A DNA stretch of 64,000 nucleotides, from IMG/VR virus record IMGVR_UViG_2522572172_000008. One strand, given 5' to 3'. The stretch's first letter is position 1. Each line of letters begins with the position of its first letter. Both the position numbers and the translations under genes were made by a program. The DNA comes from an uncultured virus (IMG/VR IMGVR_UViG_2522572172_000008). Lineage: Duplodnaviria > Heunggongvirae > Uroviricota > Caudoviricetes. Positions 2 to 49,610 of this stretch are shown one piece after another. The notes under the pieces were generated by a model, which saw nothing but the letters and a program-made list of their open reading frames with translations, had not been told where the DNA came from and ran no database searches.

Positions 2-1234
2 AGTAAAGATATTGATGTAGAAATTTACGGTATTACACCTGAAACGTTACGAACTATCTTATCTCAGTTTGGATATGTAGATGAGTTCGGTGCTTTCTTC
101 GGTATTTTAAAAATTTACGGAGTGGATATCGACTTCTCTATGCCCCGTAAAGAGGTAAAGACAGATGATGGCCATACAGGATTCGATGTTGTTGTAGACC
201 CATTCTTGGACACCCTAACAGCCTCAAAACGCAGAGATTTTAGAATGAATGCTATTATGGTAGATGTGTTAACTGAGGAAGTAATTGACCACTTTAATGG
301 TGTCTCTGACATTCAGTTAGGCATCATTCGTCACATTGATGAACATACATTTATTGAAGATGAATTAAGAGCATTTCGAGCTTGTCAATTCGCTTCAAGG
401 TTCAACTTTACAATTGCAGAAGAAACAATTGATTTATGCAAGGGATTTCGATTCTCTCTTCCAAGAGAAAGAATTTTTGAAGAGTTTTTAAAAGCATTAA
501 TGAAAAGCGAAAAACCTTCCATTTTCTTTTCATATATGAGAGAAATGCTTATTGTTAAAAAGTTGTTTCCTGAATTAGATGCATTAATTGATTGCCCTCA
601 AAATCCTATCTTCCACCCTGAAGGTGATGTATGGACACATACAATGATGGTAATTGATGAATTAGCAAGCTTAAAGCATTTATCTTCAAATCCTCTTGCA
701 TTTATGTTGTTGGGACCTACCCATGACATGGGAAAACCTATTACAACTGTTATTCAGGAAGATGGACAGATAACAGCTCGTGGACATGCTGAAGAAGGTG
801 TACCTGTTGCGAAGCAATTTTTGAAGAGAATTACTAATGACAAACGATTAATTAAAAATGTTTTAAATATGGTAGAAAATCATATGAGACCAAACTCAAT
901 TGCATTTGGTTCAGACAAGGCTGTTCGAAAATTAATGGTTGCTACTAACATCGAAGACATTGTGTTGTTCGGAGAAGCAGACCATAAAGGTAGAGGTATT
1001 TCTGAAGAAAAGAAAGATTACACAGAAGTAAAAGAATGGTTCCATCAAAAAATAGAAAAACTGCAAACGGTTGGAGAACAATCTACTATCTCCCCTCTTG
1101 TTTCAGGAAAAGATTTAATTGATGCAGGATTAAAACCTGGTAAAGAATTTAGCATTTTACTGAAAAAAGCATTTGATTTACAAATCGAAAATGGTTTATC
1201 GAAAGAAGAAATTCTTGAAAAAATATTATTATGA
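2..1234 (+). CDS. cca: CCA-adding tRNA nucleotidyltransferase with HD domain, 5'-truncated by window edge
   Basis: Frame is open from nt 2 (SKDIDVEIYG, catalytic DxD). Also RRDFRMNA, EDELRAFRACQF, ERIFEE, HPEGDVWTHT and HDMGKP motifs. Confidence 0.9.
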   Translation, partial: SKDIDVEIYGITPETLRTILSQFGYVDEFGAFFGILKIYGVDIDFSMPRKEVKTDDGHTGFDVVVDPFLDTLTASKRRDFRMNAIMVDVLTEEVIDHFNGVSDIQLGIIRHIDEHTFIEDELRAFRACQFASRFNFTIAEETIDLCKGFRFSLPRERIFEEFLKALMKSEKPSIFFSYMREMLIVKKLFPELDALIDCPQNPIFHPEGDVWTHTMMVIDELASLKHLSSNPLAFMLLGPTHDMGKPITTVIQEDGQITARGHAEEGVPVAKQFLKRITNDKRLIKNVLNMVENHMRPNSIAFGSDKAVRKLMVATNIEDIVLFGEADHKGRGISEEKKDYTEVKEWFHQKIEKLQTVGEQSTISPLVSGKDLIDAGLKPGKEFSILLKKAFDLQIENGLSKEEILEKILL

Positions 1235-1436: not shown

Positions 1437-1838
1437 ATGTACGCAAAGATAATTCTAAAAACAGGTGAGTATCATTTCAAAACAGAATCACATTACAGAC
1501 CAGAAGAATTGGAAGCATTAATGCACAGAATAAACAATTGTTGGGAACAATTTAAAAAAGACAAAGAAATTTCCGATGTTTTTATCAGTAAGGTTAATAT
1601 AAAAGACAGATTCATCATTGAATACTTGGAGTGCTTCCAGAAATGGAAATTAACAGAAGCAGGAGATATTATTTCATTTGTTGACAATACTTCAAAAAAG
1701 AAAAGTTTTCATGTAAGTTTCATTTCGTTATGGCATTTAGGATTTTTCACTGTACCAAATAAAGATTTATTTAATACTCGTTGGGAATGCGACGTAAATG
1801 ACCGACAAGTTTCTCACAAAGGATATTCATATCTATAA
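1437..1838 (+). CDS. Hypothetical protein
   Basis: ORF with GAGGAG RBS, downstream of promoter motif 2. Confidence 0.7.
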   Translation: MYAKIILKTGEYHFKTESHYRPEELEALMHRINNCWEQFKKDKEISDVFISKVNIKDRFIIEYLECFQKWKLTEAGDIISFVDNTSKKKSFHVSFISLWHLGFFTVPNKDLFNTRWECDVNDRQVSHKGYSYL

Positions 1839-1884
1839 TAAAAATATAAAAAAGAGGTTACCTGATTTTTTCAGGAACCTCTTT

Positions 1885-4800
1885 TTAAATAACCTCGTTG
1901 TTATATGCTCTTGATGTACACTTTGGACAAATGTGTTCACTCCAACCTACTTTACTTGCTAATGTGATAGATAAAGCATTTTGACCGTAAAATTGTTTTG
2001 TTTTTTCATCCCATAAATGCATAGTTGATTCTTCTTTACATGTCGGACATTTAATATTCTTACTCATATAAACCCTCTCCATTTCTTTTATTTTTATTTG
2101 TTATATTCATTATCTAATAAGTCTTTGTTATCATATATATTCCCAATCACTTCAATTGATTCAATAGAATGAAGGTCTCCCCCACCCTCTCCATTTACCT
2201 CAAACCCAAAGTTAGCGTCCGAAAAACAGACTACTCCTTTTACATTGTCATATCCACCATGCCAATGAGATTGACGCTTCCCAACAACAATGTCACCTGC
2301 AAACACCATTTGTTTTTCATCACTTGAATCTTTCAGTCCAATATATTGTCCCACTGATTCAAATTCTACTGGAACAAAACCTTGTCCTGGTGATTCAATA
2401 TAAGCTAAGTTATCTTCATAATTCATTACAGCATTGCCATAAAACCATTTTATATCACCATAATCTTCAATCGGTTTTCCCCTAAACAAAATCACATTTA
2501 TCCACTCCCTCTACTTTTAAAATACACATTTAATATTGCCCAAGCCCAAGACTACTTACGAGAATTTCATTTTCCTCTAAAGCTGATAATTCTGATTTCC
2601 CATGGTCACATTTTGTACAAAGTACATTATGAAACTTACCATTTTCTAAGTAAAAAAGAACATGGTCTCCCTTTTGAATACGGTCTTTACAGTCTCCACA
2701 TTTTAATCTTGATGACCTTGCAATAGAACTATGAATTGTGATACCCATGATATCCCTCTTTCGTTAACATATTTTAGATTCTATGAAACTGATTCTTGTA
2801 CTAAGTTGCATTTCTTACAATAAACCTTTTCTTCTACTACAACTGCGTTTTCCTCAGTACATGTAATTGAGCATTTTTGACATGTAAACCACCAACCGTT
2901 TTTTAACAATTCATTTTTTGGCACATATCCCAAATCAGCATATTTATCAAACTCTATTATCCTACTCGCTCTGATTTCCGTATAATCGCACCATCTATAC
3001 GCTTCACTCTTCACTTTCGCTTTACCAACGGTCTCAGCAAACACTATCTCTTGATTTTCACCATCGCTACCTTGAACATGAAATGCTTTCATAACATACA
3101 CCTACTTCCTTACTAAATACACTTTATATTCTACATTTCTAATACTTTTGCATTTGCTACAGGAAAGATTTTAAACCTCTGGCTTTGTAGCGTTGTTGAT
3201 ACAATAAAAGTATCTATATAGCTGTTCATTTTATTAGCATCTACTGTAACGAGCATACCATTATGCAACTTCACATATACTCCACTCTTGAATCCATCAC
3301 CAAGCATAAAACCCTCTCCATTAAGACACCTTTCAAGCGCTTCCATCAAGGTCAAGTCATATTTTATTTTCATATACATTCCCTCCTTATTTGGATAGAA
3401 CTCTTTTTTGCTTAATTTTATTGAATTACTGCCAATACTCATTATTGAAGTGTTTTCTTCCATACTCTTTTAACGCTTGGAGTTTGTTAATCATTTCATC
3501 AATATCGCAAATATGAATAGACATTGTATCTTCTCCTGTTTTATCCTCACGGGGTTTAACACCATTAAAACCAATGCTGTAATCAATACACCCATCCTTT
3601 TTCAAAATCACTTCATCAGTACCAAACTCCTCATCCCCTAAAACGATATTTCCACCTTCATATTCATGAATCTTTTTAAACATAATATTTCCCTCCCTGT
3701 ATAAGACTTAATTTTTCCGAGAGTTAATCTCTTTCAAATTTAAATGCAAATGAGTAAACATCTTTCCAGTCAATTCCATAGCATCTTCAGCACTAATTTC
3801 TTTCTGGATGTATTTTCGTTGTATTTCTGCTTGATATTCAATAAACTCAAGCATGTTCAATGATTTTTCTTGTATAATTGCATCCATAATTTATTCACTC
3901 CTATTTGTAATCTACAAATCTTTGAAAGTTAATAATCTTTACTTCATCATACTTATACTTATTCTTAATTCTTGTTTGAACTTCTTTTATCCATAACATG
4001 CCCTTTTCAGATGGGTGTTCAAATATATTAATGTGGTCATTATCAATGCCACGAAAACAACCATTTGTATATGAATACGATACAAAATAATCATAGTCCA
4101 TCACCTTATATGTTCCACTTCTAACCTTTTTTACATCTTCTTCTGTATATCCCATACGCAATAAATAACTACATTGCTTACACAGTTCTGATAAGCATTC
4201 AGATTCATCTACATTACAAATCCTGCATTTCACTTATCTTCACCTTCATCATAATCAGTAATTTGATAACCATCTTTTTTTGTATAGGTTACTGTTGCAA
4301 TAACTTTCTCTTTTTTAATTAAATCTTTATCTGAATACATTCTAATGGTAATTTTTTTATCCCTATTTTCATCTTTAACGATATTCTCTGCAACCGACTT
4401 CAAATTCTCTGGTGTTAAAAACTCATCAACAAGCACCGCATAATTTGCATCATCTTTTGTAATGTCTTTATGCACAACCGTAAACTCACTACCCGTAGGA
4501 TGATTTGCTTTTTCAATTGATTTGTTCATCGCATGAATTTTATAGAATGAAAAAATTGCAATGACCGAAAATAAGGTATAGATTATATTTTTTAATCTCT
4601 TAATTTTTTTTAGTTCCATGACGGCCACAGCTCCTTATCTTCGAAAAGAATGTCAACATCTTCTTTTTGTCTTTCATCCAAATCGTCATAATTCTCTTTG
4701 AACCATTTGATTTGAGCTTGTGTAATTTGATAAGTATGATTCTCATCAATAAGAAAACCTACAAAACCTCTCGAAATCGGAATGTAGTTCTTGAATCGTT

Positions 4801-4978
4801 TCAAATATTCATCGTCAGGCATATGAAACTCTCTTAATTCACCCATCTTTTTATACTTATCTTCTTTCCAGTGTTGCTCATCTAAAACCTCTCTTGCAAA
4901 ATACTGATGACCTCCATATTCACATGGAACCAATGTAGCATTAGGTGTTAACCAACCAATTAAAGAAGTCATAATCAC
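1885..4978 (-). other. Operon-like run of about 10 small hypothetical genes, several with CxxC zinc-ribbon motifs; includes an ORF at 3708-3887 missing from the ORF track
   Basis: Tightly packed minus-strand ORFs with RBSs; 3708-3887 reads MDAIIQEKSLN...NSRKN* (59 aa). Confidence 0.65.
2094..2495 (-). CDS. YopX family protein
   Basis: ILFRGK...VGQYIGLKD...GDIV...IEVIGNIYDNKDLL signature. Confidence 0.8.
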   Translation of the reverse strand: MILFRGKPIEDYGDIKWFYGNAVMNYEDNLAYIESPGQGFVPVEFESVGQYIGLKDSSDEKQMVFAGDIVVGKRQSHWHGGYDNVKGVVCFSDANFGFEVNGEGGGDLHSIESIEVIGNIYDNKDLLDNEYNK

Positions 4979-5050
4979 TCATCCTTTTCTGTAAATTTCA
5001 TTGACTATAGTTTATAAAGACTTTATGATAATATCATGGAGGAGATTAAA

Positions 5051-5734
5051 ATGTCAAGAATTCAAATAACTGGAGATATACATGGTATTTTAGATGTACA
5101 AAGGATATTAGAGATAGACTACTTAACAACAAATGATTATGTTATCGTTGTGGGGGATTTTGGATTTCCATGGAATAACTCAAAAAAGGAAAAGAATTTA
5201 TTTCAACAATTGGTTGCAAAGCCATTTACAACTTTATTTATAGATGGCAATCATGAAAATTTCACGTTGCTAAATAAGTATGAGGAGAAAACATGGAACG
5301 GTGGGAAAGTTCATTTCTTAAGCGACAATATTATTCACCTCATGCGTGGGCAAGTTTTTACGATAAACAACAAGAAGTTTTTTACTTTTGGTGGTGCATC
5401 ATCAACAGATAAATACAGAAGAATGAACGGAATTGATTGGTGGGAGGAAGAGCTTCCTTCTTATGAAGAAATGGATGAAGGGATTTCTAATTTAGAAAAA
5501 CACAACTATAGTGTTGACTATGTACTTACACACACTTGCCGTACAGAAACATTAGAAATGCTATGTAGACTATATGGATTCCGTCCAAAACCAGATTGCT
5601 TAAATAAATACTTAGAATCTATATATAAAAATTTAAACTTTTCTCATTGGTATTTCGGGCACTATCATAAGGATTTACCACACGTAATGAGAAACGAAAC
5701 AGTTTTATTTCGTGAGATAAAAAATATCGAGTAA
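5051..5734 (+). CDS. Calcineurin-like metallophosphoesterase
   Basis: GDIHG, GDFG, GNHE, THT and GHYH motifs; ATG 5051 follows GGAGGAG. Confidence 0.9.
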   Translation: MSRIQITGDIHGILDVQRILEIDYLTTNDYVIVVGDFGFPWNNSKKEKNLFQQLVAKPFTTLFIDGNHENFTLLNKYEEKTWNGGKVHFLSDNIIHLMRGQVFTINNKKFFTFGGASSTDKYRRMNGIDWWEEELPSYEEMDEGISNLEKHNYSVDYVLTHTCRTETLEMLCRLYGFRPKPDCLNKYLESIYKNLNFSHWYFGHYHKDLPHVMRNETVLFREIKNIE

Positions 5735-5965
5735 CCCATTGTCAAAACGGGTTACTTTTTTTATATGAAATAAAATGATATGTTCATATGATTTTATTTT
5801 ATGCTCATATTTTGTTATCGCAATTACATTTAATAAATATAATATACAAACAACATACAATAGGAATACTTAATGGGTATAAAATTTAAAAGTTTTTTAC
5901 AGTGGACTATTTTTACATCATGGAGATATACAGTGGTTATGGCATATATAGGGGAGGAACAAACA

Positions 5966-6370
5966 ATGACATCGGTACTAAAATTAAAAACAACAGAAAC
6001 AATGGAGAATGAATTAGGAGCGTTTTTGAAATCAGAAAGAAACAAGAAAAAATTATCTTTGGAAAAAGTAGCGAAAGCAATCGGAGTAAGTGCATCATAT
6101 TTACATCGTTTAGAGAATGGAGATAGAAAAAACCCTTCTATCGCAGTCTTGGAACAACTTTGTGAATTCTTTTCACTTAATCCTCAAAAGGTTTTAGAAA
6201 TGGCAGGGCTTTCAAAAGAATCTATGATTCGTGTTGATAATATAAAGATTCCTTTATCACAAATAGAAAATCTTGCTTCATTCATGTTGAAGCTTGACCT
6301 CACTGACTTTACACAAGTCATTACTTTAAAAGAGGAAGTTGAAAAGTTTCAAAACAAATTTAATAAATAA
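5966..6370 (+). CDS. XRE-family HTH transcriptional regulator
   Basis: LSLEKVAKAIGVSASYLHRLENGDRKNPS; GGGGAGG RBS before ATG 5966. Confidence 0.85.
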   Translation: MTSVLKLKTTETMENELGAFLKSERNKKKLSLEKVAKAIGVSASYLHRLENGDRKNPSIAVLEQLCEFFSLNPQKVLEMAGLSKESMIRVDNIKIPLSQIENLASFMLKLDLTDFTQVITLKEEVEKFQNKFNK

Positions 6371-6400
6371 AAAAAGACAGATATATTCTGTCTTTTTTAT

Positions 6401-6664
6401 TTATTCATTTACTTCATAATACACTCTGCCTTCAATTTTATCTTCTATCCTCTTAATATCTGGGTACTCTACAAGAACGGTTTTACCACCGTCTATATCC
6501 CCCACTTGGCATAATAAACCTTCAGGTTTACACTCATAGGCGTTTGCACGATATAACTTCTTACCATTTGTTGTGATGAATAAGTCCGTTTTTACATCTT
6601 TTATAAAAAACATAATAACTGATTTTAAATCATTTAACGATTCGCTTTTTCTTTTCAAACTCAT
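6401..6664 (-). CDS. Hypothetical protein
   Basis: ORF with GGGGAG RBS. Confidence 0.6.
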   Translation of the reverse strand: MSLKRKSESLNDLKSVIMFFIKDVKTDLFITTNGKKLYRANAYECKPEGLLCQVGDIDGGKTVLVEYPDIKRIEDKIEGRVYYEVNE

Positions 6665-6757
6665 TCATATCTCTCCCCTGTCAATTCACTCTCTACTTAT
6701 AGTCTAACCAAATTTTTTTTAGAAAACAAGCTTGATTATAGTCAATGAAATTACAGG

Positions 6758-7813
6758 TTAGTACTCCTCATCTAATTCAAAATCAGGTTGTAAAAACTGT
6801 TTCTTTTTGCTCTTCCTTTGATGTATTGCTTCAATAGATTTTTGAATAGGTTTTTGTTTTTCCTGTAACTGTGCTGTTTTTTCTGCTCCCTGTTCCCTTT
6901 CTATTTTAGGCATCTTTTTCATCATTTTCTTTTTATGATTCAATCCAATCCGCATACAATCTTCTGCGTCTTCTACAAGATTCAAAATACCTAAGACAAC
7001 AGAACGTTCCCCTTTTTCATTTTTGGTTTCACAAATAATCTCATTACGTCCTCTTCCTACAAATTCTTTATAACTGTAATAGACTTGTTGTTTTTGGTAA
7101 TAAATAGAATCCTCATAAATGAGAGAGTTCATAAACACAAAGTTATTAATATTAGGCTCTAACATAGCCTCATAATCGCCCCGTTCATCAATCATTTGCT
7201 TTTTACTTTGCATAAAGAGTGTACTTCCAATACAATAATCATCTCCACAAGACAGTAATAATTCCACAAATGGAAGATAGTATTGAGAGTCATCAATATA
7301 GACAAAGTGAGGCGATACTTTTGTATCTTCATTCACTTGCATACTTAGTTGCAATTGAGATAATAGCATTGCAGTAGCTCTAATACCATCATCCCCATTC
7401 ACTACGTATTCCATATCAATAATAACTATCATCTTTTTACTAATGACCTCTTCATAATCAATAATCTCTTCCTTTACTCGGTTATATTCATAACTTTGAA
7501 ATTCAAGAATTTTTCTTGCCTTTTCATCTATACTCGGTTTCAAGAATACAACTTTTCTCTTTGCTTTCTTGGCCATGCCATACAACATACAAGAAATGTC
7601 TTTCCTCCCTACAATAAAAGTCGCACCACACTCTTTATTGTTAATATCTTGTTGTGCCATTAATGGTAGCATTTCGGTGGTTTTTCCTGTATTTTTAGAG
7701 CCTATAACCAACGTATTCCCTAAACGATGAATCCCATTAATATTAGATTTATCAGTGATTTTCAATGCGAATTCTTCTTTTGTCAATAATTGTTCATTCA
7801 TAGCATAAAACAC
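6758..7813 (-). CDS. Short P-loop protein resembling VirD4/TraG coupling proteins
   Basis: Walker A GSKNTGKT and PHFVYIDD Walker B-like segment. Confidence 0.5.
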   Translation of the reverse strand: MFYAMNEQLLTKEEFALKITDKSNINGIHRLGNTLVIGSKNTGKTTEMLPLMAQQDINNKECGATFIVGRKDISCMLYGMAKKAKRKVVFLKPSIDEKARKILEFQSYEYNRVKEEIIDYEEVISKKMIVIIDMEYVVNGDDGIRATAMLLSQLQLSMQVNEDTKVSPHFVYIDDSQYYLPFVELLLSCGDDYCIGSTLFMQSKKQMIDERGDYEAMLEPNINNFVFMNSLIYEDSIYYQKQQVYYSYKEFVGRGRNEIICETKNEKGERSVVLGILNLVEDAEDCMRIGLNHKKKMMKKMPKIEREQGAEKTAQLQEKQKPIQKSIEAIHQRKSKKKQFLQPDFELDEEY

Positions 7814-7927
7814 CTCTTTCTATTAAATTATTTAATATATTATATGAACCTTATAAATAAATATATTATTCTATAAACACTTACACTTATCTGCAAAATA
7901 AAAAAGCTTGATATATAATCAAGCTCT

Positions 7928-8074
7928 CTATTCAGTCTTAGCAACTTTTCTACGTTTATTTAATTTTCGACCCTTCACTTGTTCTGCTTCAGATTTATGA
8001 GGTTTCGTCCTTCTAATTTTCTCTTTCGTAATTACTTCCTCGTATTGTGATTCGTCATAGTCTCGTAATTTCAT
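7928..8074 (-). CDS. Small basic protein (48 aa), not in ORF track
   Basis: GAGGAG RBS; MKLRDYDESQYEEVITKEKIRRTKPHKSEAEQVKGRKLNKRRKVAKTE*. Confidence 0.6.
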   Translation of the reverse strand: MKLRDYDESQYEEVITKEKIRRTKPHKSEAEQVKGRKLNKRRKVAKTE

Positions 8075-8619
8075 TTTAAAATCGCTCCTCTTTTTCATTA
8101 AATATATTCAATGTTTTATTTATCTTTTTTAGATGCTATATTCTATACATATAAAACGAAAAATATAATCAATAGTTGATATTTTTTGAGCTTAATAGGT
8201 TCGAGCTATGAATAAAGGTTTAATTTCCTTTAATAATAGATAAGTGCTATGACAATAATGAAATTAGGAGGGATTATAGAAAAGATGATTATAAGATATG
8301 TACATATAATAGTGGAATAAATAATAAGGATGTTTTTTACATTAACTGAATTCATTTTATATCCCATGGCAAGACTCACGACACAAGTATAGCTACTATT
8401 AAGTTATAAAAAACACAAAGTTATTAGATAAAGTAACTTTGTGTTTTAAGCATTTATTCTTCATTTTCACTACCTCCTGTTCAATCATTTTTTATATAAT
8501 ACTAAGTTCCTTATCAGAAAATATTGTTTATATACATTTAGTTTGTTTAAGAATTCAACTGCATAATTAATAATAATTAATAATACAAAAAACTCGCTTA
8601 TAATAAGCGAGTTTCCGTT

Positions 8620-46758: not shown

Positions 46759-48339
46759 TTACAATTCAATACTTTCAATTTCTTTCATTTGGTCTCCATC
46801 TGATTCAATAATCGTTCTTACTAAATCCAATAATCTATCAGAATACCCTCTTACATAAATGACTGAGCTATCTTTAGATACTTTATGACCTGATTCGGCT
46901 AATTGCCAAATGATTAGCTTTGCTCCCGTTTTTTGGTTAATCTTCAACCATGCACGTTCTAAATTATCAGCAGATTCATTATCCGTAAAAAGAATGACAA
47001 AATCTTCGTTTTTATACGCATTAAGCAACTGACTGAAATTAGTCCCGTATCCCACCATCGTAGATTCAATTTTATCCGCCATTTCAAAAACGTTATCTTG
47101 ACTACGTAGTTCTACTTTTTGTGACGTTGTAGCCACTGCAACGACCTCTGTATTATTATGAGATTTTTTAACCATGGCTCCAAATAGTGTAGCGATTTCC
47201 ATAGGAGATAACCCTCCAAGCACACCAGAAGTCATAGAGCCAGAAGTATCTACGCCCACTTTCAAGCTTTTGTTCTCATTAATAGAAAACGCTTCTTGTG
47301 CTACATCACGAAGTAACTTCCCTAAGGCTTTTTGGAACTCAGGAGTCACAACTTTCTTATTCGCCTGAATTAACGCAAATGGCAACATGTGAGAACGTTT
47401 ATATGCTTCTTTATCTGCAATTTTCGCAGAGACCATATCAACAATTTCTGATGGAATGTTCGTTTCAATTACAACGTCTTGTTTAAAGAACTGACCAATA
47501 CTTGGATTATAGACCTCTTCTTTACTAACCTCTGTTGCAAATACACGTTCTAAAGCAACTAAGTTTAAAATAAGTGCATTGTAATTTAAACGCTCATAAA
47601 CGGTTGCATATAAACGTTGCTTATCTTCTGGTAATAACGTAGAAACAGAATGCTTCACTTCTTCTAACTGAATAGAATGCTCTCGGACTAAACTATCCAT
47701 ATATAATGAATACTGTCCTGTTTCCAATCCACTAATAACAATCTTTAATGCTGTAGCTCGTGGGAATGTCAATTCTCCTTTTGAAACATATCTCATCAGC
47801 TTTTGAAAATCTTCATCTTTTGCTAAAGGTCTCGTAACTTTAGCAATATCACTAATTTTATTTTTATAACGAGTGGCTTGATATTCATTAATAAGTTGAA
47901 TAAAACGATTGTTTACTTCTCTTTTTACAGAGCGTCCTAATCCTTTTCGAATACCGCCTTTTCGTGAAATCTCAACAAAGTTATAGAGCATATTGAAATT
48001 GCGAATTATTAGTGGGAATGATTTTTTAAACAAGGACTTATCTTCTAATGTAGAAATATAAACCATCCAAATTGTTGGGACCAGTTTTAACTTCCCTTCA
48101 ACAGCTCCATAAATCGCACATTTCGTTGCAAACTCTGGTTCTTCTTTTAAAGCTCGTTGGAATAACTCCCCTGCATTTTTTAATACATCTTCTTGCTTTG
48201 TATAAAAAGTTCCATTTAATAATCCTAAGGTAAATAATTCGACCAATCGTTCTTTAAAACTATTCTTATATGCCAATGCTCCTTCTTTTGTTAACATCAT
48301 ATCAGGATTCATAGCTTTTACTTTATCAATTGTATTCAT
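46759..48339 (-). CDS. rsr: Ro60-like TROVE/vWA RNA-binding protein (526 aa)
   Basis: TKEGALAY and GTFY N-terminus, GLGRSVKR, vWA MIDAS DTSGSM...GT...TDNE; AAGGGG RBS before ATG 48339. Confidence 0.85.
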   Translation of the reverse strand: MNTIDKVKAMNPDMMLTKEGALAYKNSFKERLVELFTLGLLNGTFYTKQEDVLKNAGELFQRALKEEPEFATKCAIYGAVEGKLKLVPTIWMVYISTLEDKSLFKKSFPLIIRNFNMLYNFVEISRKGGIRKGLGRSVKREVNNRFIQLINEYQATRYKNKISDIAKVTRPLAKDEDFQKLMRYVSKGELTFPRATALKIVISGLETGQYSLYMDSLVREHSIQLEEVKHSVSTLLPEDKQRLYATVYERLNYNALILNLVALERVFATEVSKEEVYNPSIGQFFKQDVVIETNIPSEIVDMVSAKIADKEAYKRSHMLPFALIQANKKVVTPEFQKALGKLLRDVAQEAFSINENKSLKVGVDTSGSMTSGVLGGLSPMEIATLFGAMVKKSHNNTEVVAVATTSQKVELRSQDNVFEMADKIESTMVGYGTNFSQLLNAYKNEDFVILFTDNESADNLERAWLKINQKTGAKLIIWQLAESGHKVSKDSSVIYVRGYSDRLLDLVRTIIESDGDQMKEIESIEL

Positions 48340-48386
48340 CTTAACACGCCCCTTTTGAATATATGGTTTTTTAAATTTAAAACTAA

Positions 48387-48433
48387 AAGAATGAGCCACA
48401 AGAAGATGTATTATCCTCTCATGGCTCATTCTT
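48387..48433 (-). terminator. Long hairpin plus U tract between the RNA array and the ro60 gene
   Basis: AAGAATGAGCCA/TGGCTCATTCTT outer stem extended by G-U pairs, followed on the minus strand by TTAGTTTT. Confidence 0.6.
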
Positions 48434-48461
48434 CTAAAACATGTAACATGTTTATATAAAA

Positions 48462-48626
48462 CATAACGAAGAAGAAGGTGCAAGACAGTGGAGGCTGTAA
48501 AGTATCTAATCTTTTAAAAGAGTAGATACTTGCACGTTATTTTTATTCACATACAAAACACAAAATTCATTTTAGATTTTAATATCTTTAATCAAATTAA
48601 TGTAGTCTTGCAAGCACCTCGTTATG
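48462..48626 (-). ncRNA. Y-RNA-like element, class I copy 3
   Basis: CATAACGAGG-TGCT-TGCAAGAC-TACAT...GTCTTGCA-CCTTCTT-CTTCGTTATG. Confidence 0.7.
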
Positions 48627-48664
48627 ATTTTTTCTACGAAATGTAGAAAGTATAAGAAATGAGC

Positions 48665-48784
48665 TTTGAGGGAGAAGTAATAAGACAGGTGTGAATGTTT
48701 TTTCGTATGAGTGTACGCATAAACAATCCAAGTTTATTTTTTAAAATTTGTCGTATTTGTATGTAGTCTTATCAGCACCTCAAA
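48665..48784 (-). ncRNA. Y-RNA-like element, class I copy 2
   Basis: TTTGAGG-TGCT-GATAAGAC-TACAT...GTCTTATT-ACTTCTC-CCTCAAA. Confidence 0.7.
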
Positions 48785-48873
48785 ATATAAGCAGAAAAAG
48801 AGTAGCTTTCACAATTCCTCTTCTGGTATTAAGAAAAGAAGAGCTTCCACAGTTCTTTTCTTTAAAAAAAGTA

Positions 48874-48988
48874 AGTTATAACTTGAGTAGTCTCCAACCT
48901 AATCAACTACCCTTATTAACTCTTCACCTGTTCCGTAAACATGTGGCGAAATTAATAGGAACCATCCATTTATCTTCATGTTCCAACC
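48874..48988 (-). ncRNA. Structured RNA, class II copy 2
   Basis: GGTTGGAAC...TGGAT..TTCC...GAGTT...TGATTAGGTTGGAG...GTTATAACT, paralogous to 49041-49154. Confidence 0.6.
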
Positions 48989-49040
48989 GTATTTTCGATA
49001 AAAATCGAGATAACTCTACTTACAAAAAATAGAATCATTT

Positions 49041-49154
49041 AGTTATAACCTTGACGACCTCCGACCCAATCATCAACATCAACTCCATAGCAACAAGGTT
49101 AACACCTTTTACTATAGAATTGACGGGAATCTATCCACCGATATAGTTCCAACC
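49041..49154 (-). ncRNA. Structured RNA, class II copy 1
   Basis: GGTTGGAAC...TGGAT...TTCC...GAGTT...TGATTGGGTCGGAG...GTTATAACT. Confidence 0.6.
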
Positions 49155-49195
49155 ACTATTTTTTATGTAAACTCATCATAAGTGTGTTTTACATT

Positions 49196-49270
49196 CTAAC
49201 AAGGAAGAAGGTGCAAGACGTTAGTCCTTTTGGTAAGCTGTCAAATGTAGTCTTGCAAGCACCTCATTAA
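49196..49270 (-). ncRNA. Y-RNA-like element, class I copy 1 (minimal, 75 nt)
   Basis: TTAATGAGG-TGCT-TGCAAGAC-TACAT...GTCTTGCA-CCTTCTT-CCTTGTTAG. Confidence 0.7.
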
Positions 49271-49280
49271 CTATATTTAA

Positions 49281-49309
49281 ATTATAAATTAATTATATAC
49301 TATAGTCAA
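49281..49309 (-). promoter_or_regulatory. sigmaA promoter of the RNA array; -35 lies in the palindromic operator
   Basis: TTGACT-17 bp-TATAAT, with predicted start a few nt before class I copy 1. Confidence 0.8.
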
Positions 49310-49385
49310 TAAAAATATTATATTTTTTTATTTTATATAGTCTTATAAAATGAATTTTTTATTTCAACTTCAATATAATAGATAG

Positions 49386-49610
49386 TGATTCCTGTTGACC
49401 AAGCAACATAATAACTCGATAAGGGAGAATAGACACCTCATCCCGTCTTTCTGGACTTCGGGTGCCAGTGTCGTTGGCAGACAACATACAAATCTGTTAT
49501 ATACATCTTGAGGTTAGATGGTTGGCGAGCAACATAAAAACTTGGTGATTGTATGTTATCTTCCTAACATACAAATAAAAAAGCAGACCCTAAAAGGTCT
49601 GCTTTTCTCT
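49386..49610 (+). ncRNA. Candidate structured RNA divergent from the array
   Basis: TATAAT at 49374; nested stems, UUCG loop, ACCTCA/TGAGGT loop complementarity; terminator 49576-49610. Confidence 0.5.

Follow-up and report, generated by a model that had tools for sequence, protein, structure and literature searches.

The stretch of DNA analysed here (64,000 nucleotides (nt), filed in IMG/VR as IMGVR_UViG_2522572172_000008 and called the window below) is identical, in a blastn comparison against plasmids, to the Bacillus thuringiensis Bt407 plasmid BTB_502p (NC_018878.1, 501,911 bp), with coordinates in the plasmid record equal to window coordinates + 311,971. A dehydrogenase gene and rsr, the gene for the Ro60/TROVE protein Rsr, border a gene-free stretch of 1,270 nt (48340–49609); a 574-amino acid TTG open reading frame (ORF) in the ORF list is an overlong version of rsr. 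Read along the minus strand, the gene-free stretch holds an array of ~0.8 kb made up of Y-like RNA 1, two RNAs of about 115 nt, two small hairpins, Y-like RNA 2 and Y-like RNA 3, after which rsr follows. Bacterial Ro60/Rsr works with Y RNAs, and those of the YrlA class mimic tRNA. The two 115-nt RNAs, which share their strand with rsr and lie 535–815 nt upstream of its start, are the subject of this analysis (Table 1).

The original prediction, made from the sequence, described the pair as a distinct second RNA type inside the Y-like array beside the TROVE/Ro60 gene, and this is confirmed in all but the first arm of the fold it proposed: the two elements are paralogues and form an expressed, strand-specific, structured and non-coding RNA pair outside the families described so far. 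Both diverged minus-strand copies, of 114 and 115 nt, were recovered where they had been placed. When the copies were aligned with MAFFT, 67 of 122 columns were invariant and the common blocks were reproduced, namely GGUUGGAAC at the 5′ end, UGGAU..UUCC, AAUU, GAGUU, UGAUURGGUYGGAG and GUUAUAACU at the 3′ end. Divergence between the copies is very uneven, in that the ends and the 14-nt loop block are kept, whereas the hairpin interiors have been replaced yet still pair. No ORF is common to both copies, the longest being a 94-amino acid TTG ORF on the opposite strand, over copy 2 only. Directly after copy 2 (48792–48862, minus strand) stand two small hairpins, paralogous to each other and with the common loop UGUGRAAGCU, which were found only in Bt407.

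Table 1. Features of the rsr locus of plasmid BTB_502p in window coordinates, with the tRNA-like genes of two related loci (L010 and L013) in the coordinates of those loci.
Feature	Position	Strand	Details
Copy 1 (114 nt)	49041–49154	−	model R1, 128.9 bits
Copy 1, closing helix	49154–49146 with 49049–49041	−
Copy 1, conserved 5′ segment	49145–49126	−
Copy 1, long hairpin	49125–49077	−	apex aaggUGUUAAccuu
Copy 1, 3′ hairpin	49076–49051	−	loop GGGUCGGA
Copy 2 (115 nt)	48874–48988	−	model R1, 128 bits
Copy 2, closing helix	48988–48980 with 48882–48874	−
Copy 2, conserved 5′ segment	48979–48958	−
Copy 2, long hairpin	48957–48914	−	apex loop UUACGGA
Copy 2, 3′ hairpin	48912–48885	−	conserved loop block GAUUAGGUUGGA
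Candidate A-to-I editing site, A53 of copy 2	48936	−	RNA contigs read G (plus-strand T>C)
Y-like RNA 1	49201–49265	−	stem GGUGCU-UGC-AAGAC / GUCUU-GCA-CC; flanks the pair on its 5′ side
Y-like RNAs 2 (~48781–48668) and 3 (~48620–48464)	48464–48781	−	flank the pair on its 3′ side
Single RNA contig, run X9	48477–49261		strand not given by the contig; ends near the end of Y-like RNA 3
Promoter-like TTGACT-17-TATAAT (11/12)	49281–49309	−	16 nt upstream of Y-like RNA 1; 20 nt upstream of RNA contig end 49261
Weaker promoter-like TTGTTA-16-TATGAT (9/12)	49175–49202	−	21 nt upstream of copy 1; promoter scan
U-run	49024–49029	−	11 nt past copy 1; direct reading
U-run	48870–48864	−	3 nt past the end of copy 2; direct reading
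rsr (Ro60/TROVE protein, 526 amino acids)	46759–48339	−	Ro60 vWA domain PF25045, E 2.4e-07; annotated TROVE domain-containing protein
Glucose 1-dehydrogenase/SDR gene	50374–49610	−	borders the gene-free stretch on one side
PolyA_pol + RNA-binding + HD protein	2–1234	+	nucleotidyltransferase of CCA-adding-enzyme type, by domain content
tRNA-like gene, L010	4872–4939		Rfam tRNA 49.4 bits; missed by ARAGORN
tRNA-like gene, L013	3877–3947		Rfam tRNA 52.4 bits; ARAGORN label 'tRNA-???'

Minimum free energy (MFE) folds pair the predicted stems in both copies and give both the same architecture, a closing helix of the two ends followed by a long hairpin and a second, 3′ hairpin. The whole fold of copy 1 reaches −41.8 kcal/mol (z = −5.27, matched or bettered by 0 of 200 shuffles) and that of copy 2 −25.7 kcal/mol (z = −1.77, 13 of 200). 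Taken alone, the long middle hairpin, which has 22 pairs in copy 1, scores z = −9.54 in copy 1 (0/200) and z = −2.83 in copy 2 (3/200), and the 3′ hairpin z = −2.75 (1/200) and z = −2.73 (3/200), respectively. The UGG-containing first arm, which the original prediction had likened loosely to that of a cloverleaf, did not hold up, as it folds at chance level in both copies (z = +0.21 and +0.11, with 106 and 98 of 200 shuffles as good); the conserved 5′ segment UGGAU..UUCC is probably unpaired or engaged in tertiary contacts. Plus-strand folds amount to −17.1 and −16.1 kcal/mol, the minus strand being more stable by 24.7 and 9.6 kcal/mol, and because the complementary strand folds so much worse the RNA appears to be read from the minus strand.

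Comparison of the two copies adds a further argument for structure. The closing helix is invariant in 8/8 pairs, while the base of the middle hairpin shows one compensatory and two one-sided changes in 8 pairs, a compensatory score reached by 243 of 500 shuffles. The apical interiors of the long hairpins cannot be aligned between the copies, yet each is self-complementary, and such self-complementarity in interiors that have no common sequence is a stronger, qualitative argument for structure than covariation. These patterns also bear on the idea that the pair is a recent tandem duplication with no function of its own, transcribed through a strongly expressed array. An orphan found as two copies on one plasmid and nowhere else in the sets searched, on which covariation has no power, would agree with that idea, but the divergence is uneven (ends and 14-nt loop kept, replaced interiors that pair) and the folding advantage is specific to one strand, and we regard a functionless duplicate as hardly probable.

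Part of the intergenic stretch is contained in 14 of the RNA sequencing (RNA-seq) runs listed, with array-covering contigs from two studies (runs X1 and X9). Four of the 24 listed RNA-seq runs were compared with the stretch, X1 and X9 as contigs, X21 and X22 as raw reads. The contigs of run X1 cover 48493–49227 at a word depth of 1603–8141, compared to 16.4 in the adjacent dehydrogenase region and none at the 5′ end of rsr, and contaminating DNA is unlikely because neighbouring regions differ by a ~100-fold step in depth. The array region is abundant in the RNA libraries. Adapter-joined contig ends in run X1 mark fragment ends at 49227, 49182 and 49136/49134. For the RNAs themselves, we infer both the strand of transcription and discrete ends. 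A terminator-like hairpin of 20 pairs (48387–48433, minus strand) separates the last Y-like RNA from the start of rsr; the RNA contigs stop short of it (at 48477 and 48493), and none of the runs compared has a contig over rsr. On the other side of the array, the interval from the dehydrogenase terminator to the array promoter holds a short inverted-repeat unit, AUGUUGY-N4-5-CAAC, in three copies (49391–49535, minus strand); in run X1 these have the same depth as the dehydrogenase gene (16.4) and an adapter-joined contig end at 49404.

The X9 contig spans the whole array and is compatible with one precursor, in which the pair could act as structured spacers or processing signals, either as cut marks (for RNase P, Z or III) or as end protection of a polycistronic Y-like precursor, with no role in trans. 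The 22-pair hairpin of copy 1 would suit RNase III, and the only strong promoter-like site precedes Y-like RNA 1. A tRNA likewise lies between two Y RNAs in one precursor in Deinococcus radiodurans (PMC4201824). The copies are not discarded spacers, however, because the depth over them is at least that over the Y-like parts (2510 vs 1603 in run X1). Furthermore, the copies have kept blocks that simple hairpins would not need, the 14-nt UGAUURGGUYGGAG as well as the 9-nt ends, and related arrays of up to 10 Y-like units do without such an element. A spacer or processing role for the pair is, on balance, unlikely.

The tandem layout, the U-run after each copy and a multi-helix junction whose conserved loops resemble aptamers would also fit cis-regulatory leaders (tandem riboswitch-like elements or attenuators) that control read-through into Y-like RNAs 2 and 3 and rsr, or else small regulatory RNAs unrelated to Rsr. 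However, the U-runs stand 11 nt (copy 1) and 3 nt (copy 2) past the closing helix, neither was called by the terminator scan, and the RNA contigs run through both. What lies downstream is more non-coding RNA and no coding gene, no Rfam riboswitch matched, and no homologue was found in the sets searched, unlike most riboswitch classes; a regulatory role of either kind seems distinctly improbable. The promoter scan found 7 sites where 6.8 were expected, so the 9/12 site before copy 1 is no evidence by itself.

The array that hosts the pair belongs to a wider group of loci. Proteins 40–56% identical to Bt407 Rsr were found on megaplasmids of Aneurinibacillus, Paenibacillus polymyxa and Brevibacillus and in Bacillus sp. 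M6-12, as well as at 24 metagenome and 2 viral loci; among genome contigs, a first protein scan for Rsr relatives gave 0 and an alignment-based scan 2. The Y-like stem, in which 5′ GGUGCU-NNN-AAGACUACAU pairs with 3′ GUCUU-N′N′N′-CC, was searched for on the rsr-encoding strand of 31 sources (the Bt407 intergenic stretch and 30 rsr loci). Its 5′ motif occurs 46 times in 15 of the 31 sources, 37 of these instances have a complementary 3′ partner, and the variable NNN takes 16 different triplets, and the Y-like array is a real conserved RNA family accompanying this Rsr subfamily. The Bt407 intergenic region yielded three Y-like units, none of which overlaps a 115-nt copy. Arrays upstream of the Rsr subfamily reach 10 units (window 48464–49265; L010 2500–4760; L013 1180–3760). 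Rfam holds no match for the Y-like units. The 29 single matches of the motif in viral contigs were judged to be chance.

Other RNAs accompany rsr at these and more distant loci. In the Aneurinibacillus plasmid (L010) and Bacillus sp. M6-12 (L013), rsr is preceded at 54–61 nt by a tRNA-like gene whose anticodon loop is aberrant (shortened or of 6 nt) and which encodes no CCA; each of the two genes follows a promoter-like box, TTGACTATAAAC. Real tRNA arrays stand before rsr in the related loci L018, L032, L033 and L036, and Bt407 has no tRNA-like gene at the place just before rsr. A G+C-rich stretch within the arrays is conserved between L010 (3760–4460) and L013 (2300–2480 and 2890–3150), for example in GGGCGUG..UAGGUCAACGCU.UGGC.AGUGCGAACCUUCCCUGUAU. 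Rfam gave no match to this stretch, which may represent a large structured RNA of a new kind. In Rhizobium etli pA (L093, 4541–4800), rsr is directly followed by two YrlA copies in tandem (63.5 and 92.2 bits), so that an unrelated lineage also has a tandem pair of Rsr-associated RNAs.

A single position of copy 2 differs between RNA and DNA. The G read at 48936 accounts for all of the depth in both covering runs (4113.4/4113.4 in X1, 32.1/32.1 in X9) and is the only RNA/DNA difference in ~980 nt (X1) and 785 nt (X9). The base concerned is the second of UACG at the tip of the long hairpin, in a 7-nt loop with a predicted stem of just 3 pairs beneath it, and A53–G55 have predicted unpaired probabilities of at least 0.9. 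There are 4 UACG and 256 A on the minus strand of the 785-nt stretch, and only the UACG of copy 2 falls in an apical loop. According to PMC5630033, TadA-dependent sites in E. coli are all TACG with the second base edited, most lie in a predicted loop, and the site with a loop identical to that of tRNA-Arg is the most edited. The A>G difference matches this TadA editing signature and, with the DNA base taken from the reference record, probably reflects editing. A DNA difference between the reference and the RNA-seq strains (a single-nucleotide polymorphism or reference error) would give the same reads, as strain or allele differences mimic editing, and the difference is 100% in the contigs of both runs, where most bacterial mRNA sites are edited partly (PMC5630033). 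Contigs drop minority variants, however, so '100%' here means the majority only, and the sole difference falls on the A of the one UACG, out of four, that lies in an apical loop. The odds that a random substitution would hit exactly this base as A>G are ~1 in 2000, which favours editing, and makes a DNA variant rather unlikely.

The idea that the pair mimics tRNA, which formed part of the original prediction, gains one unexpected piece of support. The copy 2 loop UUACGGA is identical at 6/7 positions to CUACGGA, the anticodon loop of tRNA-Arg(ACG) of Bacillus sp. M6-12 (ARAGORN), and G is read at the equivalent of A34 in both covering runs; neither copy, on the other hand, has significant similarity to tRNA or YrlA. 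The hairpin tip of copy 1, aaggUGUUAAccuu, equals the tRNA-Asn(GUU) arm cggCUGUUAAccg minus C32, which is a lead only. The 5′ segment looks like a decayed T-arm (GG-AUAGAUU-CC) and the 3′ loop like a D-loop (AUURGGUYGGAG), likenesses that would give the YrlA order of T, variable stem and D, none of them significant. Local alignment to the YrlA T-arm region gave 15/20 and 13/15 identical positions (p 0.10–0.11), with the first arm at chance level. The prediction was right that a canonical T-loop (UUCRANY, G-C closed) and an encoded CCA are absent, the nearest sequences being GG-AUAGAUU-CC and the loop GGUYGGAG, with no CCA past the closing helix. Elsewhere, two tandem hairpins, uggugUUUCACcacca, lie within a Y-like unit at L010 3343–3400; their hexaloop equals the tRNA-Glu(UUC) anticodon loop minus C32, as in the Asn-like tip of copy 1, and a global test showed no enrichment. 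A general idea of arrays of anticodon mimics was dropped, as there was no excess over the reversed control.

We tentatively read the pair, at slightly less than an even chance, as RNAs that are accessory to the Rsr/Y-RNA system, specific to this lineage and mimics of an anticodon arm, and that would bind Rsr and function with it. Ro60, as in the original prediction, and the CCA-adding-type enzyme encoded by the plasmid (2–1234) would be the candidate binding partners. Each RNA has a closing helix formed by the conserved ends, a long hairpin kept in shape and not in sequence, and a second hairpin with the loop RGGUYGGA. The tip of the long hairpin would imitate an anticodon loop, that of Arg-ACG in copy 2 and, short of one base, that of Asn-GUU in copy 1, and in copy 2 the host tRNA deaminase TadA appears to deaminate this tip. 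The 115-nt RNAs would then correspond in function to the YrlA tRNA-like domain and to the tRNA-like gene that precedes rsr in L010 and L013, whose role the pair may take in Bt407. A bolder version, which we find very doubtful, would have them serve on the megaplasmid as anticodon-stem-loop decoys or sensors, copy 1 of the Asn-GUU type and copy 2 of the Arg-ACG type, that couple tRNA damage or toxin attack to Rsr/Y-RNA quality control. As decoys, the loops would be offered to TadA, as the A>G difference suggests, possibly to queuosine transglycosylase, or to anticodon nucleases, kinds of which cut tRNA-Arg or tRNAs of the Asn/Asp/His/Tyr group.

Several results weigh against the reading as accessory RNAs with tRNA mimicry. 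The contigs show neither strand, ends nor true level of the transcript, and the raw-read runs X21 and X22 gave no reads here. With only two sequences (n = 2) there is no covariation support for any structure, and the chance-level first arm makes the cloverleaf picture look weak. The Y-like stem motif is absent from the 115-nt RNAs, leaving position and co-occurrence in RNA contigs to suggest a link to Rsr. Tests for known families, of which the original prediction had recognised none, were all empty at the copies. ARAGORN found 0 tRNA genes in the window, although tRNAs and tRNA-like genes were picked up with these tools at other loci. Rfam gave nothing at the copies at gathering thresholds, and at E ≤ 10, with 6 kb or 331 nt as query, only low-scoring unrelated families with no tRNA and no YrlA. 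The YrlA model (RF02553, gathering threshold 69 bits), which scored 92.2 and 63.5 bits on the two tandem copies of R. etli pA as positive control, returned five weak hits over the whole plasmid (12.8–29 bits), all at 98–104 kb and 0 at the copies. The 20 Smith-Waterman tests against R. etli YrlA (two RNAs), the two tRNA-like genes and Bacillus tRNA-Arg all gave p ≥ 0.10. Derivation from tRNA was rejected, as an 8-mer shared with the tRNA-Arg D-loop (UGGAUAGA) and a 10-mer shared with the tRNA-Asp T-arm (GAUUCCCGUC) were at chance level, such 8–10-mers having p of about 0.10 per comparison in 29 comparisons. Nor were anticodon-loop matches enriched in the hairpin tips of 14 array regions, with 24 of 632 heptaloops compared to 24 in the reversed control, and 4 hexaloops compared to 3, of 630. 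As a separate observation, the weak YrlA-model hits at 98–104 kb of the plasmid record suggest tRNA or tRNA-like genes there.

Homologues add to this side of the balance. The original prediction had proposed looking near other TROVE genes, and none was found at 30 related rsr loci by either the nhmmer profile or the covariance model R1, so the Rsr link stands on one locus. A profile of the two copies reached at best E 4.8 in 31 rsr-related loci (212 kb) and E 0.73 in 29 viral loci. Model R1 recovered only the two copies in the window and 30 loci (next best 17.3 bits, E 0.41), and nothing more than these two over the 502-kb plasmid. In blastn searches under 'distant' settings, phages gave 0 matches and plasmids only the plasmid itself. 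A pattern of both ends matched 92 stretches in viral contigs, 80 of which were scored with R1 (best 19.9 bits vs 128 for the copies), and gave one match, which looks like chance, in 401 genomes of one order (that of genome G001); a pattern of the 3′ block had 0 matches in viral contigs. Sequence searches cannot recover copies as diverged as these two and none was aimed at B. cereus-group assemblies, and because sensitivity and coverage were limited in this way, 'orphan' means not found in the sets searched. A literature search turned up nothing relevant on Bacillus thuringiensis, most subscription journals lying outside it.

The locus is a Firmicute megaplasmid version of the Rsr system, in which an array with several units of a different Y-like family stands ahead of rsr; on this one plasmid the array also contains an unrelated, highly abundant structured RNA pair. 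If the editing is true, copy 2 would be a non-coding TadA target in a Gram-positive bacterium and give direct in vivo evidence of an anticodon-like loop, and the question of why Ro60 partner RNAs imitate tRNA would become approachable in a genetically tractable Bacillus. If the difference is only a DNA variant, the expressed orphan RNA pair remains, and its interest is modest.

The pair can be compared with several known systems. The E. coli TadA sites in mRNA (e.g. hokB; PMC5630033) share with copy 2 a UACG whose A lies in a predicted hairpin loop nearly identical to the tRNA-Arg heptaloop and is read as G. Copy 2 differs in being a candidate non-coding target on a Firmicute plasmid, with a 3-pair stem and a DNA base from the reference record. 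With the Y-like RNAs of the array, the 115-nt RNAs have strand, RNA contig, locus and size range in common, whereas the stem motif is entirely absent from them and the Y-like family occurs in 15 of 31 sources compared to one for the 115-nt RNA. The tRNA-like genes of L010 and L013 are likewise structured, non-Y-like RNAs inside or at the end of an rsr array, with tRNA resemblance and an abnormal anticodon loop. They score 49–52 bits with Rfam tRNA and have canonical D and T arms, in contrast to the Bt407 RNAs, which give no score, are 45 nt longer and have no significant similarity to them.

YrlA offers a parallel in layout. According to PMC4201824, YrlA RNAs near rsr mimic tRNA and receive tRNA-type modifications, and carry the hallmark GNCGAAN0-1G near the 5′ end. 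This hallmark is absent from the 115-nt RNAs, neither of which has CGAA, their 5′ end being GGUUGGAAC. They also differ in giving no hit with the YrlA model, in having no canonical T-arm or D-arm and no significant pairwise similarity, and Bt407 Rsr is ~24% identical to the Rhizobium proteins. The likenesses concern arrangement. YrlA RNAs are ~114 nt long and lie within 4 kb of rsr on its strand, a position and size shared by the 115-nt RNAs; they have a closing helix formed by their two ends and a three-arm junction with a sequence-variable middle arm, a topology that the 115-nt RNAs, with their first arm at chance level, would fit; and they occur in tandem, as two adjacent copies in R. etli pA. 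While scoring as neither YrlA nor tRNA, the 115-nt RNAs would, by analogy of their position, size and topology, work as tRNA mimics of the YrlA type.

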